A model generated the notes under the pieces. That model searched no databases and was not told the origin of the DNA. It saw only the letters and a program-made list of their open reading frames with translations. Shown piece by piece: positions 25,955 through 32,262 of a stretch of 64,000 nucleotides of DNA. The stretch is from Patescibacteria group bacterium (GTDB lineage: Bacteria; Patescibacteriota; Minisyncoccia; UBA6257; Colwellbacteraceae). The stretch lies in NCBI GenBank assembly GCA_023380475.1, contig JAMCRD010000006.1, positions 2,546 through 66,545 of the forward strand. Reading direction: 5' to 3'. Position 1 is the stretch's first letter. Every line of letters begins with the position of its first letter. The position numbers were made by a program, and so were the translations under genes.

Positions 25955-25987
25955 ATAGGCACCATACTAATCTCTTGTATGGTGCCG

Positions 25988-26062
25988 CGGGAGGGAATCG
26001 GACCCCCGACGCCAGCCTCTTCAGGGCTGCGCTCTACCACTGAGCTACCGCGGCGATAACAA
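25988..26062 (-). tRNA. tRNA-Phe(GAA)
   Basis: Minus strand: acceptor GCCGCGG/CCGCGGC, D arm GCTCAGTGGTAGAGC, anticodon loop CTGAAGA, CCA encoded. Confidence 0.8.
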
Positions 26063-26130
26063 AGACATGCTACACAAGATCAATCCATTCTTCAATGAAG
26101 GAGAGCAGATTGCTACATAGACAATAACTA

Positions 26131-27687
26131 TTATAGACTTGTAAAGTTCAACGGACTGCCCCCGTAGTTCAATGGATAGAACAGATCCGTCCTAAGGATA
26201 AAATAGGAGTTCGATTCTCTTCGGGGGCACCAAGTGAGAAATTGCAAATCCCCAGAAGTCGCCGCAGACGGCTGGGCGGCCAGTTCGTATTGTAATTTCG
26301 GGGCAAACGAGAATTCGCGGTTTCGCAAAATATGGTTCGAGCCGATGTTTTTGAGAAATGTTGTCATTGCAATTCCGTTATTCTCTTGAAGCAGTTTTGA
26401 GGCCTGATTGAGTGATAGAACGAACTCTCTCGCTGGTTCGAGCCACGACAGCCCTTTGTCCGCGAAATCGGATATTTTCTCCTGCAATCCGATTTTCCGA
26501 GAAAGCAGCTGTTCCTTCTTCGCGGCGTATTCGGTCTGGAACAGGGCGTCGGCAAGATAGGCATCGAGGAGTTTGGACAGCTTCGCCTCCACGCGGGCAA
26601 CTTCGTTTTTCAGAGTATCAATCTGCGCTCGCGCCTCCTCCCTTGCCTTGTCCCGTTCCGCCTCTAAGAGAGCTAACGCTTTCTCGGTATCATCGTCCGA
26701 CAAAGAAATTTTTTGCAGGAACGATTGTATATGCTCCGTCACTATCTCCTCGCGGAGATAGTGCTTTTCTTGGCACACGCCGCCTTTCTTTGTGCAACGA
26801 TAATAAGCATGGCCTTTCTGCATTTCGGCGGTGATGGAGCTTCCGCACGAGGCGCATTTCATAAGGCCGAGAAAAGCGAAATCATGCCGCTTCGTCTCAA
26901 TCGTCTTGCCGCGCTTTGCGCGCACCTCTTGGCAGAGGTCAAAAAGTTTCTTCGGGACAAGAGGTTCGTGGCGTCCCTCGTACAGTTCTCCGCGATACCG
27001 CATAAGGCCGTAATAGAAGGGGTTGGTTAAAATCTTCTGGATATTGCTAAGCGCAATCTCCTTGCCGAGGTTGCCTTTCAATCCTTGCTCTCGGCACCAA
27101 TCTACGAGGTCATGGAGCGTATAGCTTCCTATGGCGTAAAGCGCGAACAGCTTGCGGACAAGCGGGGCTTTCACGGGGTCAACATCAATCCCTCGCGTCC
27201 TCGGGTTGTTCAAGTAGCCAATCGGTGCCCAGCTCGGCCATACGCCGTTCCGTATCTTCTGCCGCAAGCCACGCTTTACGTTCTCCCGCAGGTTGTCCAC
27301 GAAGTATTTTGACTGCCCGAAGGCAATGTTGAGCATAAAGAGGCCTTGTGGTGTCGGCTCAAACCAGAACGTAGGGAACTTGAGGGACTTAATCAGGCCT
27401 CGGTCAATCATGTGGATGACCCGCCCGCCGTCCACGGAATTGCGGGCGAGGCGATCTGGGTGCCACGAGAGGATGCCCTGTGCCTTGCCGCGTTCCACGA
27501 ATGACAACATTTCAGCGAACTTAATACGGCCGGGTTCTTTGGCGGTCTTTGCCTCCTCAAAGGAAGCGACAATTTCAAGTTTTTCTTTGGCGGCAAATTC
27601 CCGAAGCTCCACCAGTTGAGCTTCTATGGACAGCACCTGCCCGTCGTCTTCTTCCGTTGATTTGCGAGCGTAGATTATGTATTTCAT
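26131..27687 (-). CDS. large serine recombinase (resolvase catalytic domain, recombinase domain, zinc ribbon, coiled coil)
   Basis: N-terminal YARKST..Q catalytic serine motif and ILSWHPDRLARN; CASCGS...CTKKGGVC zinc ribbon; coiled-coil region; last 28 codons are antisense of tRNA-Arg, so true stop is likely upstream. Confidence 0.85.
   Translation of the reverse strand: MKYIIYARKSTEEDDGQVLSIEAQLVELREFAAKEKLEIVASFEEAKTAKEPGRIKFAEMLSFVERGKAQGILSWHPDRLARNSVDGGRVIHMIDRGLIKSLKFPTFWFEPTPQGLFMLNIAFGQSKYFVDNLRENVKRGLRQKIRNGVWPSWAPIGYLNNPRTRGIDVDPVKAPLVRKLFALYAIGSYTLHDLVDWCREQGLKGNLGKEIALSNIQKILTNPFYYGLMRYRGELYEGRHEPLVPKKLFDLCQEVRAKRGKTIETKRHDFAFLGLMKCASCGSSITAEMQKGHAYYRCTKKGGVCQEKHYLREEIVTEHIQSFLQKISLSDDDTEKALALLEAERDKAREEARAQIDTLKNEVARVEAKLSKLLDAYLADALFQTEYAAKKEQLLSRKIGLQEKISDFADKGLSWLEPAREFVLSLNQASKLLQENNGIAMTTFLKNIGSNHILRNREFSFAPKLQYELAAQPSAATSGDLQFLTWCPRRESNSYFILRTDLFYPLNYGGSPLNFTSL
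26148..26222 (+). tRNA. tRNA-Arg(CCT)
   Basis: Acceptor GCCCCCG/CGGGGGC, anticodon loop GTCCTAA (stem has one G-A mismatch), T loop AGTTCGATTCT, CCA encoded; its last 6 nt (GCACCA) begin repeat X. Confidence 0.65.
26217..26315. repeat. inverted repeat X (99 bp), left copy
   Basis: Exact reverse complement of 27714-27812; spans tRNA-Arg 3' end and encodes residues RNREF...LTWC of recombinase ORF. Confidence 0.9.
26316..26339. repeat. inverted repeat Y (24 bp), left copy
   Basis: Exact reverse complement of 27923-27946; contiguous with X on the left, but separated from X' by Z on the right. Confidence 0.8.
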
Positions 27688-27691
27688 CGTG

Positions 27692-27711
27692 TTAAAAATT
27701 TTCTTTTCCCA
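27692..27711. repeat. 20-bp inverted repeat, left copy (ttaaaaattttcttttccca)
   Basis: Exact reverse complement of 27947-27966; forms the leader 4 nt upstream of the recombinase start codon. Confidence 0.85.
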
Positions 27712-27713
27712 GT

Positions 27714-27812
27714 CGAAACCGCGAATTCTCGTTTGCCCCGAAATTACAATACGAACTGGCCGCCCAGCCGTCTGCGGCGACTTCTGGGGATTTGCAATTT
27801 CTCACTTGGTGC
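27714..27812. repeat. inverted repeat X' (99 bp), right copy
   Basis: Exact reverse complement of 26217-26315; in-frame on + strand it re-encodes the same 33-aa peptide. Confidence 0.9.
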
Positions 27813-27897
27813 AGGACAATTGAGATAGCTCGAACGGTTTTTGACACCCCCACCGAGGCTAAATCTGAAACGCCCGACGTGGCGGAGCCGCACCGAT
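27809..27897. repeat. inverted repeat Z (89 bp)
   Basis: Reverse complement of 28659-28747 with one mismatch; overlaps X' by 4 nt (GTGC). Confidence 0.85.
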
Positions 27898-27922
27898 AAA
27901 GACCGCCAAAGAACCCGTTCCT

Positions 27923-27946
27923 AACATCGGCTCGAACCATATTTTG
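27923..27946. repeat. inverted repeat Y' (24 bp)
   Basis: Exact reverse complement of 26316-26339. Confidence 0.8.
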
Positions 27947-27966
27947 TGGGAAAAGAAAATTTTTAA
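27947..27966. repeat. 20-bp inverted repeat, right copy (tgggaaaagaaaatttttaa)
   Basis: Forms the leader 4 nt upstream of ATG 27971 of the small AT-rich gene; identical to the recombinase leader. Confidence 0.85.
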
Positions 27967-27970
27967 TCAT

Positions 27971-28141
27971 ATGAAAAAAGCATTATTAATTATTTGTGAG
28001 TTTATAGCGACGGTAGTTATTTTCTTATTGATTTATAAATTTTTTAATTTATCAACAGCTTTACCAATATGGATTGTAATCGTCATCATTTTGATAAAAA
28101 CGACAATTAGCCACGACGGTAAAGACAAAGACGGGGCATAG
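27971..28141 (+). CDS. small two-TM membrane protein (56 aa)
   Basis: ATG at 27971 (track ORF begins at a TTG inside Y'); very AT-rich coding sequence unlike the surrounding genome. Confidence 0.4.
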   Translation: MKKALLIICEFIATVVIFLLIYKFFNLSTALPIWIVIVIILIKTTISHDGKDKDGA

Positions 28142-28203
28142 GATTTTGAATATTGGTCAATCTGTTCCGCACCAATAAAGACACAAAGAAATAATTTTTA
28201 ACC

Positions 28204-28626
28204 ATGAAAAGATTAAAAAGTTTACTAGTGGTTTGGCTAGAAATTTTGGTCGGCGGCCTGATTTTAATTTTTGTGCCAGACATCAGATGGTTTCTGTTTT
28301 ATCTTTTAGTGATTGTTCTTATGACTTCGGTTATGCGAGCGGATTATCTGCGAAAGGTCGTCAGGGTGTTCCAAGTGGAGAATGGGGTTAATCTCGCTAG
28401 CATAGCCAAGAAACTCAACATATCGGAAGCAGAGATTCAGAAGTCCAGAGATGACCTTAGCGACAGCTTGCTGGACGACCAAAGAAAATCTTTGCATAAG
28501 GATATGGAAGAGCTTGGAATTTCCAGCCCCGAACGCTTTTACAGAAATCCAGTGGACGGCCTATCAGATACCGAAAGGGGTAAGAAATTCATGGATAAAG
28601 TTTTTAAGGACTTCGGGGATAACTAA
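28204..28626 (+). CDS. membrane protein with HTH-like segment
   Basis: 140 aa; two N-terminal TM helices, then VNLASIAKKLNISEAEIQKS resembling a helix-turn-helix; AT-rich. Confidence 0.4.
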   Translation: MKRLKSLLVVWLEILVGGLILIFVPDIRWFLFYLLVIVLMTSVMRADYLRKVVRVFQVENGVNLASIAKKLNISEAEIQKSRDDLSDSLLDDQRKSLHKDMEELGISSPERFYRNPVDGLSDTERGKKFMDKVFKDFGDN

Positions 28627-28658
28627 AATTTGCCGCCAAAGAAAAACTTGAAATTGTC

Positions 28659-28747
28659 ATCGGTGCGGCTCCGCCGCGTCGGGCGTTTCAGATTTAGCCT
28701 CGGTGGGGGTGTCAAAAACCGTTCGAGCTATCTCAATTGTCCTGCAC
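28659..28747. repeat. inverted repeat Z' (89 bp)
   Basis: Reverse complement of 27809-27897 with one mismatch; begins 33 nt after stop of 28204-28626. Confidence 0.85.
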
Positions 28748-28782
28748 TACTAATAATCTGCTAATTGAGCATATTATTAGTA
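28748..28782. repeat. 10-bp perfect palindrome TACTAATAAT/ATTATTAGTA with 15-nt spacer
   Basis: Seen directly; sits between Z' and tRNA-Arg(TCT). Confidence 0.6.
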
Positions 28783-28786
28783 GACC

Positions 28787-28858
28787 GTCCCCATAGTTCA
28801 ACGGATAGAACATCTCCCTTCTAAGGAGATGATTGAGGTTCGATTCCTCATGGGGACA
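28787..28858 (+). tRNA. tRNA-Arg(TCT)
   Basis: Acceptor GTCCCCA/TGGGGAC, anticodon stem TCTCC/GGAGA with loop CTTCTAA, T loop GGTTCGATTCC. Confidence 0.8.
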
Positions 28859-28859
28859 C

Positions 28860-28930
28860 CGGGCTGTAGTGTAATGGTAGCACGAGTCTTTTGGGAAGAT
28901 TTAGTCCGAGTTCGAATCTCGGCAGCCCGA
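28860..28930 (+). tRNA. tRNA-Pro(TGG)
   Basis: Acceptor CGGGCTG/CAGCCCG, anticodon loop TTTGGGA with G37, T loop AGTTCGAATCT; starts 2 nt after tRNA-Arg. Confidence 0.75.
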
Positions 28931-28954
28931 CAAAATAAAGTAGACCCATCTAGG

Positions 28955-30263: not shown

Positions 30264-30674
30264 TTGACTAAACGTAATATTGCAAGAGTCAAAGCCAGAG
30301 AAGATTTTGATCTATCATATACTCCGCTATTCGCCGTGGGTTTAGCAATATATTGGGGAGAGGGCGACAGCAAGCCAAAGAATCCTTTGAGAATATCCAA
30401 CACAGACCCACGGATGATAAAGTTGTACGTCAGGTTTCTCAGAGAAATTATGAAAGTCCCTGACGATAAAATCCGCCTAGGCCTCATACTGTATCCAGAC
30501 CTCGATGATAGAGCAAGTAAGAATTACTGGTCTAAGATAACTAACTTGAAATCAACAATTTTTGTCAAATCTCAGTTTTCAAAGGGCGTCATCCTACAAA
30601 AAACTGCGCCACGGCGTGTGTATGGTTATAGTAAGTGGGTACGAGTACAAGGAGAGGGTTCTAGAATGGATTGA
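30264..30674 (+). CDS. hypothetical protein
   Basis: 136-aa ORF with no recognised family; contains LAIYWGEGDS segment loosely reminiscent of a LAGLIDADG motif. Confidence 0.3.
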   Translation: MTKRNIARVKAREDFDLSYTPLFAVGLAIYWGEGDSKPKNPLRISNTDPRMIKLYVRFLREIMKVPDDKIRLGLILYPDLDDRASKNYWSKITNLKSTIFVKSQFSKGVILQKTAPRRVYGYSKWVRVQGEGSRMD

Positions 30675-30709: not shown

Positions 30710-30780
30710 GCGGGTATCGTATAGCGGTATTACATCTGGTTGCCAATCAGATGACAGGGGTTCGACTCCCCTTACCCGCT
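30710..30780 (+). tRNA. tRNA-Gly(GCC)
   Basis: Acceptor GCGGGTA/TACCCGC, anticodon stem TCTGG/TCAGA with loop TTGCCAA, T loop GGTTCGACTCC; no encoded CCA. Confidence 0.75.
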
Positions 30781-32262
30781 CAAGGTTATTTCTTCTTCAA
30801 CGCCTATATTTTTTATAAAGTCCGCGTCGTGAGATATAACTATCAGCGCGCCTCTGAAATTAGATAGAGCGCTTTCAATTTTTTCGATACTGTCTAGATC
30901 TAAATTATTGGTCGGTTCATCTAAGACAAGGAGTTGCGGCGGTTTTTCTCCAGATAAGATACATGCCAGTGCGGCACGCATCTTTTCCCCGCCGCTTAGT
31001 ACATCGACTTTCTTTATAATATCGCTGTCTCTAAACAAAAATCTGGCGAGCCACTTCCTGGATGCTTCGTTATCAAGCCCAGATATGCGCTCCATGTTGT
31101 TTAGAAGGGTCGCATCCCTAGATAGCCTTACAACATCCTGATCAAGATATGCCACTCTATCTATACCAAGCACGACCCTACCTACCACTGGATTTATTTC
31201 TTTCAAAATTATCTTTACCAGCGTGGTTTTCCCTGAACCGTTCGGCCCGCTTATGGACACCCTTACCGGGCCATAAAGATCAAGATTAAACTTTCTCAAT
31301 ATAGGCTTCGTACCGTAAGAGAAACTCACGTCTTTCAGTGTCGAAACAAGTTTGCCGCTAGGGACTTCTGTTCCGGAAATATCCACTTTTATGCTATTTT
31401 CCGGCGGGATCCTGGCCACAGCTTCCTCCAATGCACGTTTGGCATTGTTCACTCTAATAATATGAGTTAGGTGCAGTTTGGAACTCGTTTTCTCGCTGGT
31501 TTCTTTCATATGACCAAGCTCCAATCTGGACATCCCCAACTTGCCCTTCACCGCCCGTCCACGTCTAACCCTAACTCGCTGTCTTTCCAACATAGCTTCA
31601 GCCTGTTGCTCAGCGAGCTTAAACTTTTCACGCTTTACGGTTACATCCCTAGCAGCTGCTGCGCTCTCCGAATTCTTAATCTCTCTGTATGCAGAGTAGT
31701 TGCCACCGTAAAGCCTTAACCCATTTTCTGATAATTCAAGAATTCTATCCACTAAATTGAGCAGCTGTCGGTCGTGACTAACTACCAGCACGCCGCCACG
31801 CCAGTTCTCTACCAATTTGTAGATCACCTCGCGCGAAGCGCGATCCAGATTGTTGGTAGGCTCATCCAGTATTAGGAACTTCGGTTGCGATGCTATCAGG
31901 CTAGCCAGGACGACTTTCACTCTTTCACCGCCACTTAGGTTCCCAAGTGCGCGATTGGGTTCGATGTGTTTTATACCGAGTTCGGGGAACTTCCCCAAAC
32001 CATTTGCGCCAGCTACATCCAACACCTTCCTCGAAAGATCAACGTGCATATCTTGCGGCAGATAAGCTGTGCGAACCAACCTCTCGATCTTGCCTCTACT
32101 GGGTTCGATTTCGCCGACAAGCAACTTCAGAAAAGTAGTTTTACCCACACCGTTCTTGCCGACCAGGCCTGTTTTCTCACTGTCAAAGCTTGCAGTTATA
32201 TCTCTAAGGATGTAACCCGAACCCGCATCGAATGATATGTTTTTAGCTACTATGTCTGCCAT
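30772..32262 (-). CDS. ABC-F family ATPase (tandem ABC domains, no TM domain)
   Basis: Two Walker A sites (GKNGVGKTT, GPNGSGKTT), two signature motifs (LSGGERVK, LSGGEKMR), charged linker between them. Confidence 0.8.
   Translation of the reverse strand: MADIVAKNISFDAGSGYILRDITASFDSEKTGLVGKNGVGKTTFLKLLVGEIEPSRGKIERLVRTAYLPQDMHVDLSRKVLDVAGANGLGKFPELGIKHIEPNRALGNLSGGERVKVVLASLIASQPKFLILDEPTNNLDRASREVIYKLVENWRGGVLVVSHDRQLLNLVDRILELSENGLRLYGGNYSAYREIKNSESAAAARDVTVKREKFKLAEQQAEAMLERQRVRVRRGRAVKGKLGMSRLELGHMKETSEKTSSKLHLTHIIRVNNAKRALEEAVARIPPENSIKVDISGTEVPSGKLVSTLKDVSFSYGTKPILRKFNLDLYGPVRVSISGPNGSGKTTLVKIILKEINPVVGRVVLGIDRVAYLDQDVVRLSRDATLLNNMERISGLDNEASRKWLARFLFRDSDIIKKVDVLSGGEKMRAALACILSGEKPPQLLVLDEPTNNLDLDSIEKIESALSNFRGALIVISHDADFIKNIGVEEEITLSG

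Follow-up and report, generated by a model that had tools for sequence, protein, structure and literature searches.

Large serine integrases such as those of A118, SPbeta (SprA), phiC31, Bxb1, Tn4451 (TnpX) and Tn5397 (TndX) recombine attP and attB sites that share a short core, and structural work on the A118 integrase–attP complex is reported to show that P-type and B-type half-sites differ by an offset of ~5 bp in the position of the zinc-ribbon motif. A different arrangement is found in the mycobacteriophages BPs and Brujita, where attP lies inside the repressor gene and integration, catalysed by a tyrosine integrase, truncates the repressor. Few mobile elements have been characterised in Patescibacteria, whose genomes are tiny. 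Here we analyse a stretch of 64,000 nucleotides (nt), called the window throughout, from a Patescibacteria group bacterium of the Colwellbacteraceae (assembly GCA_023380475.1, contig JAMCRD010000006.1, positions 2,546 to 66,545 of the forward strand), and report that an island at positions 26227–28747 of the window is an integrated 2.5-kb mobile element, inserted at the CCA end of tRNA-Arg(CCT) and carrying a large serine integrase and a cargo cassette.

The element resembles the described large serine integrase elements in protein family and domain order, in its short attP/attB core, and in P- and B-type half-sites with the ~5-bp motif offset. Unlike them, it targets the CCA end of essentially any tRNA gene, is only 2.5 kb long, appears to place attP inside the integrase open reading frame (ORF), carries what would be a second, inverted attP together with a C-terminal exon, and has no recognisable directionality factor. 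As in BPs and Brujita, an attP within coding sequence would let integration alter the C-terminus of a protein that controls the life cycle; in contrast to those phages, it is the integrase gene itself that would be cut, and the spare inverted exon would allow it to be rebuilt without excision. To our knowledge, an attP inside the integrase gene, an inverted spare exon and a cargo bay framed by gene copies that skip the helices of the gene are undescribed for serine-integrase elements, and a full-text literature search found no description of this element.

A serine-integrase element at the CCA end of tRNA genes

The integrase ORF of the integrated state occupies 26131–27687 on the minus strand and encodes 518 amino acids (aa), its conserved part spanning 26326–27687. 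Pfam domains PF00239 (Resolvase, E = 5e-21), PF07508 (Recombinase, 1e-15) and PF13408 (Zn_ribbon_recom, 1e-7), all above curated cut-offs, place the protein in the large serine recombinase family; it matches the PHROG 95 integrase at E = 1e-76, and its direct matches to the A118 and SPbeta integrase chains in the PDB are weak. Two long inverted repeats organise the island. The repeat formed by a (26227–26325, minus strand) and a' (27714–27812, plus strand) is 99 nt long, has 100% reverse-complement identity and brackets the integrase gene, while Z (27809–27897, plus strand) and its outer reverse-complement copy Z' (28659–28747, plus strand) bracket the cargo; a' overlaps Z by 4 nt (GTGC). An earlier description of Z and Z' from the letters of the window alone, the original prediction, as an 89-bp inverted repeat with one mismatch was accurate: the arms are 89-nt reverse complements with a single mismatch at 27880/28676, where a C instead of the T at 27880 would pair perfectly with the G at 28676, and the A/G difference reported at the time is the same position seen from the other strand. 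Extension of the arms was attempted on both sides and proved impossible, and a near-perfect repeat of 89 nt cannot occur by chance within 64 kb. The same 2.5 kb holds five more exact inverted-repeat pairs, namely a/a' and the copies of four integrase-gene segments that we call C, Bq, U and D.

This anatomy is conserved. A scan with one genome per species recovered at least 554 integrase relatives, almost all in Patescibacteria metagenome-assembled genomes (MAGs) from many studies, and the best 80 share 64–83% aa identity with the window's integrase. When each locus was compared with itself, the same arrangement was found in 35 complete loci, including the window, from many Patescibacteria lineages. 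With the integrase drawn on the plus strand, it reads flank, Z, reverse-complement (rc) D, cargo of 0.5–1.7 kb, rc U, rc Bq, rc C, rc Z, rc a, U, integrase, a', tRNA. The lengths of Z (69–130 nt) and a (54–138 nt) vary across loci, and the repeated pieces are 97–100% identical within a genome despite integrases that are only 64–83% identical to that of the window. ViennaRNA alifold, applied to 24 aligned elements, identified compensatory changes at 69 of the 82 pairs of the main a/a' helix. Compensatory changes combined with identity within each genome indicate that the repeats are no assembly artefact and that their arms evolve in concert. The segment from Z to Z' does not resemble an insertion sequence or a miniature inverted-repeat transposable element: it always lies at the same place beside the integrase, no duplication flanks Z or Z', and Z overlaps a' and continues the integrase frame.

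The ends of the island identify the integration target. The gene for tRNA-Arg(CCT), called by ARAGORN and Rfam at 26158–26232 on the plus strand, supplies in its 3' GCACCA end the target and the B' half of attB, and repeat a begins within its last 6 nt. Z' forms the element's right end, an attL-type P' arm, and finishes in GCAC, repeating the end of the tRNA. Since a core is common to the three junctions a'|tRNA, internal a'|Z and Z'|flank, with GCAC(CA) present at 26227 and at 28744–28747, we place the bounds of the island at 26227–28747. In 45 of 55 related loci a tRNA gene stands antisense beside a', covering 13 amino-acid specificities, and in 34 of those 45 the repeat reaches ~5 nt into the GCACCA-type 3' end of the tRNA.

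Circularisation of the element would bring Z' and a together, and the internal a'|Z junction would, as judged from its sequence, be an intact inverted attP with core TGGTGC, its P arm lying at the end of a' and its P' arm in the first ~25 nt of Z; at the attR-type junction with the tRNA, the outer end of a supplies the P arm. Sequence is conserved in the Z arm (TGC AGTATTCTTGAA.TAGT.CGAAC), whose YCGRAY motif lies 5 bp farther from the crossover than its T-arm counterpart in the tRNA arm (position 21 versus 16 in 18 loci, 18 versus 13 in most others). The other arm of attB, in the flank, is not conserved. A shared short core with hybrid P-/B-type arms at the junctions is what a serine-integrase integrative element shows, and we are highly confident in the identity of the element and in this assignment of Z and Z'. 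The predicted circle is comparable to the yeast 2-micron plasmid in having two unique segments split by inverted, site-bearing repeats of ~184 nt, with four possible isomers, whereas the yeast plasmid uses the tyrosine recombinase Flp and replicates autonomously, and the element described here has no replication function and is found integrated.

A dense tRNA cluster (Phe, Arg-CCT, Arg-TCT, Pro and Gly; 25980–26232, 28787–28931 and 30710–30781) surrounds the island, and the gene for tRNA-Arg(TCT) lies on its other side at 28787–28860. Between the element's end and tRNA-Arg(TCT), at 28747–28783, stands a hairpin with a 16-nt perfect stem (CTACTAATAATCTGCT / AGCATATTATTAGTAG), probably the original trailer or terminator of tRNA-Arg(CCT), now split off by the 2.5-kb insertion. 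Several related elements, too, are flanked by tRNA genes on either side, and such neighbours would offer second attB sites to the internal attP. One stand-alone contig of the integrase segment (L037, 1471 nt) has a high coverage of 116, and contigs often end at the element's repeats, many loci being cut at integrase aa 23–57 or just 5' of the ATG; both observations are consistent with multi-copy elements or with orientation heterogeneity. JASEHZ01, CAZZBC01, DAIDAY01 and JACPEK01 hold two or three copies of the element.

The integrase C-terminus and rearranged loci

In the integrated state, the last 31 integrase codons, read from the antisense of the tRNA gene, are junk, with the stop 96 nt past a, and related integrated ORFs stop 2–379 nt past a' in flanking DNA. 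Repeat a encodes integrase residues 455–487, and a' is an internal inverted copy of these codons. The frame through a' continues into Z for 28 codons to a TAA at 27897–27899; it is open and conserved, with a peptide of the form ...F(P)xW[CW]xIL[EK][LI]VRT[HV]F...AEPHR*, and, of 31 readable loci, about half place the stop no more than 5 nt from the inner end of Z. The pattern of divergence by codon position from a' into Z gives only a weak coding signal. Because the integrase frame stays open and conserved through a' into Z, attP would lie within the integrase gene, the crossover site would fall inside coding sequence, and the integrated and excised forms would encode different C-termini. The segment a'+Z (27714–27897) would in that case be an intact inverted spare of attP and of the last ~62 integrase codons. 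Neither the window nor 37 of 55 loci provide this frame with its own start codon. When its peptide profile was searched against 5.8e9 proteins, nearly all hits were orphan ORFs, and of the 120 best, just 2 join the peptide to an integrase body. An independent role for a'+Z, as a small gene or a directionality factor, was considered: ORFs of 60–114 aa exist in the databases, but the missing start in the window and in those 37 loci makes this unlikely. No recombination directionality factor is recognisable in the element, where a'+Z is the sole other conserved frame and the cargo has no family match.

Rearranged copies bear on how these repeats behave. The orientation of the cassette relative to the recombinase is identical in 35 of 35 complete loci. 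A metagenome scan found seven contigs (L094–L100) in which Bq, a' and Z lie on one strand. Two of them, L097 (10.6 kb, with both flanks) and L094 (21 kb), have the integrase inverted between a and a', with intact ORFs of 547 and 541 aa, respectively, and another locus, L081, has the same a/a' inversion and an integrase with an internal stop. L096 and L100 are palindromic contigs of the kind typical of assembly through inverted repeats, and L095 and L099 are decayed. In L098 (1929–2050), as in L067, the a repeat has grown inward over Bq and one arm of the intragenic helix HY described below, and the 5' part of the integrase, from U to C, is lost; this expansion resembles the migration of inverted-repeat boundaries in plastid genomes. 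Low-frequency inversion between a and a' is probable, and an orientation error of the assembler is also possible. A flip confined to Z–Z' was seen neither among the seven contigs nor among the other metagenome contigs examined, the 1.1-kb L082 (Bq-a'-Z followed by rc D) being ambiguous and possibly a circle junction. The viral contigs searched contained truncated or distant relatives only, and no small circles.

Further loci lack the cassette or have reduced it. In L069 and L078, an a–integrase–a' unit without a cassette has a tRNA abutting its upstream repeat; L069 has a second tRNA ~95 nt past the detected end of a', and the L078 contig stops at an a' that runs on into tRNA-antisense sequence. 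This is the product expected of recombination between the internal attP and a second tRNA gene, and the internal attP thus appears to be active, as far as these junction sequences tell. In L068 and L025, Z.Z' is reduced to a short hairpin without cargo. The order in L079 (flank|Z|C-body-Bq-a') matches the expectation for a deletion circle formed by C × C recombination in the flipped state and then integrated.

The cargo compartment and its borders

Between Z and Z' lie the two small ORFs of the original prediction: gene 1 (27971–28141, plus strand), encoding 56 aa with two hydrophobic helices, and gene 2 (28204–28626, plus strand), encoding 140 aa with two N-terminal hydrophobic helices. A guanine-plus-cytosine (GC) content visibly below that of the neighbouring genes had been claimed for both, and this holds for gene 1 alone, whose GC of 0.29 is in the lowest 0.05% of equal-sized windows. 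That of gene 2 (0.418, here rounded to 0.42; 12th percentile of same-size windows) is ordinary for a window with mean GC of 0.474, and the neighbour at ~50% is the recombinase gene itself (0.52, upper ~5% of same-size windows). Neither protein has a family match in Pfam, PHROGs or PADLOC; the proposed helix-turn-helix (HTH)-like segment of gene 2 found no backing there, its only Pfam hits being sub-threshold (RPA_C, E = 0.025), and no defence or addiction function could be detected for either protein.

The view that the cassette is cargo of a mobile element driven by the adjacent recombinase gains support from the other loci, since related elements carry unrelated cargo, of types that we judged by eye as SRPBCC-like, radical-SAM-like, methyltransferase-like and HTH, with many membrane or secreted proteins. 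The cassette also has a history of its own. Cargo GC correlates weakly with that of the host (r = 0.38) and not significantly with that of the integrase (r = 0.26), and gene 2 shares 92% DNA identity with the second gene of a tRNA-Met element (L083–L085) whose integrase is only 74% identical to that of the window. In the sister element L083, gene 1 is replaced by an unrelated 91-aa membrane protein. The contrast between 92% and 74% identity, together with the different first gene, argues that modules recombine between elements. More distant relatives of gene 2 adjoin NfeD/S49 protease genes. In L090 (184–2479), a distant large serine integrase (34% identity) stands beside a rolling-circle initiator Rep (PF23343) and a gene-2 homologue, which hints at single-stranded DNA stages of replication in some Patescibacteria integrase elements. 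A U-like motif before every cargo gene, as an analogue of attC, was considered and rejected: it is present before gene 2 of the window and absent from other multi-gene cassettes.

The cargo is framed by antisense copies of the integrase gene itself, and we know of no other serine-integrase element with a cargo compartment bounded in this way. The left border (27898–27966, plus strand) consists of a copy of C (27898–27917), 5 nt, a copy of Bq (27923–27946) and a copy of U (27947–27966, just before gene 1), and the right border (28627–28658) is a copy of D. The sources of these copies all lie on the minus strand. C (27531–27550, gene nt 138–157) is matched exactly in reverse complement and is present in most related loci; Bq (26326–26349, gene nt 1336–1359), the last 24 integrase nt before a, contains GGCTCGAACC and shows extreme third-codon-position conservation; U (27692–27711) is the integrase 5' leader, nt -5 to -24, is copied exactly and is conserved in related loci. 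D (27568–27599, gene nt 89–120), also copied exactly, is the most conserved DNA stretch of the gene, with third-position conservation of 0.93–0.98; among 36 cassettes, its copy stops at gene nt 120 in 23 and at nt 116–119 in the others. In circular order, the cassette frame D|C|Bq|U equals the integrase gene minus the hairpin s, the body closed by helix HY and the a/a' stem, with cargo in place of codons 1–29. Put differently, the second half of the predicted circle would consist of the blocks [U..D], [C..Bq] and [a' Z], each inverted in place. A simple inverted dimer of the gene was rejected as the origin of the cassette, being at odds with the observed block order of b1 b2 b3 -b1 -b2 -b3. 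An in-frame fusion of integrase and cargo through C-Bq-U, whose frame is open in the window and inconsistent across loci, was rejected too.

The skipped parts of the gene are helices that covary. The 6-bp hairpin s (27551–27567, minus strand, gene nt 121–137) fills the gap between D and C exactly; its pairing across 51 genes stands at 97%, and two pairs, both of third codon positions, show CG/TA/GC swaps (47 double-change cells). The arms of helix HY, both on the minus strand, lie at 27498–27515 (gene nt 173–190) and 26353–26370 (gene nt 1318–1335); 14 of its 18 pairs form in the window, and covariation is seen among the 51 genes at 184–1324, 187–1321 and 181–1327. Patches of near-absolute third-position conservation occur at gene nt 85–120, 166–186, 727–753, 967–999, 1237–1266 and 1315–1359, and most of them are arms of covarying long-range inverted repeats, namely s, HY, 988–1000/1238–1250 and 394–409/574–589; alifold adds 287–297/1279–1289 and others, all nested inside a/a'. 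Several of these nested helices are present in the window, among them 27498–27515/26353–26370, 27391–27401/26399–26409, 26939–26954/26701–26716 and 26866–26878/26762–26774. The boundaries of the border pieces match the fold exactly: the last nt of D (120) and the first nt of C (138) adjoin s on either side, Bq spans the interval from the end of HY to the start of a', and U starts at the end of a. The cassette copies abut Z and one another with gaps of 0–8 nt, and the border pieces abut the stems with gaps of 0–6 nt. Sense and antisense strands fold equally well (-300.6 versus -303.7), leaving no strand asymmetry by which RNA could be told from DNA. A scan of the island for sigma-70 promoters and terminators found nothing above shuffled expectation, and at a permissive E-value the tRNA was the sole Rfam match.

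Some loci vary these borders. In L005, L014, L019, L045, L053 and L063, an insert of ~63 nt made up of two AT-rich, terminator-like hairpins interrupts the D copy at gene nt 101/102, and in some others (L006, L028) a partial duplicate of the first half of D lies upstream. Outside the island, the sequence GCCAAAGAATCCTTTGAGAATATC at 30374–30397, inside an unannotated ORF (30264–30674), is 71–75% similar to D and C (GCCAAAGAA...); the likeness may be chance or mark a degenerate pseudo-site.

A proposed integration cycle and its alternatives

With modest confidence, we favour a model in which integration truncates the integrase, a rare a/a' inversion rebuilds it, and Z–Z' is an exchangeable cargo bay. 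With attP inside the integrase frame, integration would split that frame: the copy of a beside the tRNA would stay with the gene, the protein would end in tRNA-antisense junk with its last ~28 codons replaced, and the Z arm, now Z', would come to lie at the opposite end. The spare a'+Z sits just upstream of the integrase gene, and it would be because this spare is carried that the element has two long inverted repeats, one (a/a') enclosing the integrase and the other (Z/Z') the cargo. A rare a/a' inversion would re-join the body of the gene to a'+Z and restore a full-length integrase, and the truncated orientation would be the stable resting state, as seen in nearly all assemblies. For the borders, we favour pairing with, or homology to, the integrase gene, which may serve cargo exchange or repression.

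Several points weigh against this model. The model presumes that the truncated integrase is inactive and that the C-terminal 28 residues matter. The three flipped contigs are only suggestive, because two of the seven Bq-a'-Z contigs are clearly palindromic artefacts, and an assembler may misjudge which way round a segment lies if the inverted repeat enclosing it exceeds k in length. No circular junction or excised circle was recovered among the contigs examined. An active internal attP would be hazardous, as it could drive chromosomal rearrangements, and its retention therefore needs a presumed benefit. Finally, the model gives no compelling reason for the border copies of C and Bq or for intragenic helices that fold equally on both strands.

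The border may be a functional antisense "shadow" of the integrase gene that skips the helices and pairs with the unpaired linkers into exact three- and four-way junctions, an idea we regard as tentative and rather more apt to fail than to hold. A mirror design that serves mainly a single-stranded stage (single-stranded DNA in transformation, single-stranded DNA from helper rolling-circle replication, or a long structured RNA), with repeats that are structural and not recombinational, we consider unlikely. There, pairing of a with a' and of Z with Z' would give a 184-bp duplex that re-creates a double-stranded attP, and the borders (-D, -U, -Bq, -C) would pair with linkers of the integrase strand in a four-way junction (D, s, C, Z) and three-way junctions (Bq, a, U; C, HY, Bq). 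Such a design would account for the nested long-range helices in the gene with their covariation and extreme synonymous-site conservation, for border pieces lying 0–6 nt from stems and for the equal folding of the strands, which is expected of pairing at the DNA level, and it would suit the company that a gene-2 homologue keeps with a distant integrase and a rolling-circle Rep in L090. It has to contend with an element that encodes no Rep, relaxase or reverse transcriptase and matches no Rfam family, and with helices that cannot all form together, since inter-loop pairings cross the a/Z stem. Moreover, serine recombinases work through double-strand breaks, and a serine integrase given a hairpin attP is expected to produce chromosome ends closed by hairpins instead of an integrated element; we rejected integration of a single-stranded circle through such a site for this reason.

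The turnover of cargo invites comparison with integrons, in that unrelated promoterless genes lie beside a recombinase and a folded single-strand site, as in the hairpin attP of CTXphi, is possible; the known systems depend on tyrosine recombinases (IntI, XerCD) and on attC hairpins, all of them absent here, where the recombinase is of the serine type and no repeated site separates the genes of multi-gene cassettes. We find it improbable that the integrase or host recombination, acting on the ultra-conserved U-Bq-C and D arms, inserts or swaps promoterless genes between U and D in integron fashion, with Z/Z' incidental. Each element does have different cargo that begins just past U and ends just before D, the first gene was swapped and the second retained between L083 and the window, and the borders are nearly identical across elements with integrases only ~70% identical. 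Yet the missing attC-like repeats speak against capture, the inner boundaries at U and D vary by several nt, which fits homology-driven better than site-specific exchange, and we know of no large serine integrase that recombines border sites of the U/D type. A still lower probability falls to the reading in the original prediction, that Z/Z' are crossover sites of a phase-variable cassette by which the recombinase switches two surface or regulatory proteins; we hold it to be very unlikely. A long near-perfect inverted repeat does stand beside a serine recombinase, and the perfect identity of the arms within each genome suggests that arm exchange continues, but the constant orientation in all complete loci, and in every metagenome contig examined apart from L082, argues against free inversion. 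Nor is Z the dedicated recombination repeat it had been taken for, being very probably the 3' continuation of the integrase frame plus an att arm, and a flip would not obviously separate the cargo from the putative expression signal in the U copy, which lies inside the cassette. The repeats are kept at all related loci; a syntenic cassette without them, named in advance as evidence against mobility, was not encountered.

The enzyme itself points the same way. Enhancers of Hin and Gin lie in the 5' part of the recombinase gene, and the cis segment D-s-C at nt 89–157 and inverted repeats beside a serine recombinase recall Hin/hix, Gin/gix, Cin, Min and the shufflons. Invertases of the Hin/Gin type are ~190 aa long with a C-terminal HTH, act on 26-bp sites and occur in both orientations, whereas the protein here is an integrase-type large serine recombinase of more than 480 aa (487 or more, with recombinase and zinc-ribbon domains), its repeats are 89–99 nt long, one orientation dominates, and only the a–a' segment shows rare flipped contigs. 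The least probable account, to which we give hardly any weight, puts the repeats down to misassembly or to an inverted duplication of the integrase gene that left a functionless relic: palindromic contigs of the element exist (L096, L100) and the 99-nt length of a/a' is a common assembler k, but identical architecture recurs in MAGs of many studies and assemblers with repeats of varying length, compensatory substitutions between lineages are massive, one mismatch separates Z from Z' in the window, and the pieces stay ~100% identical while cargo turns over.

In the model that we favour, reactivation gated by inversion would, if true, be a new control principle for site-specific recombinases, as would pairing of the borders. 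A shadow border, if real, would be a device templated by nucleic acid that controls the integrase or steers the exchange of cargo modules among elements, and a new self-referential mobile-element architecture specific to the candidate phyla radiation. The very small, portable attP/attB logic of the integrase, aimed at the near-universal T-arm and CCA end of tRNAs, is of practical interest for genome engineering. This compact 2.5-kb element occurs in hundreds of species-level genomes, at tRNA genes of at least 13 specificities and with a different accessory gene each time, and its wide spread and varied targets and cargo therefore make it a plausible major route of gene exchange in Patescibacteria.

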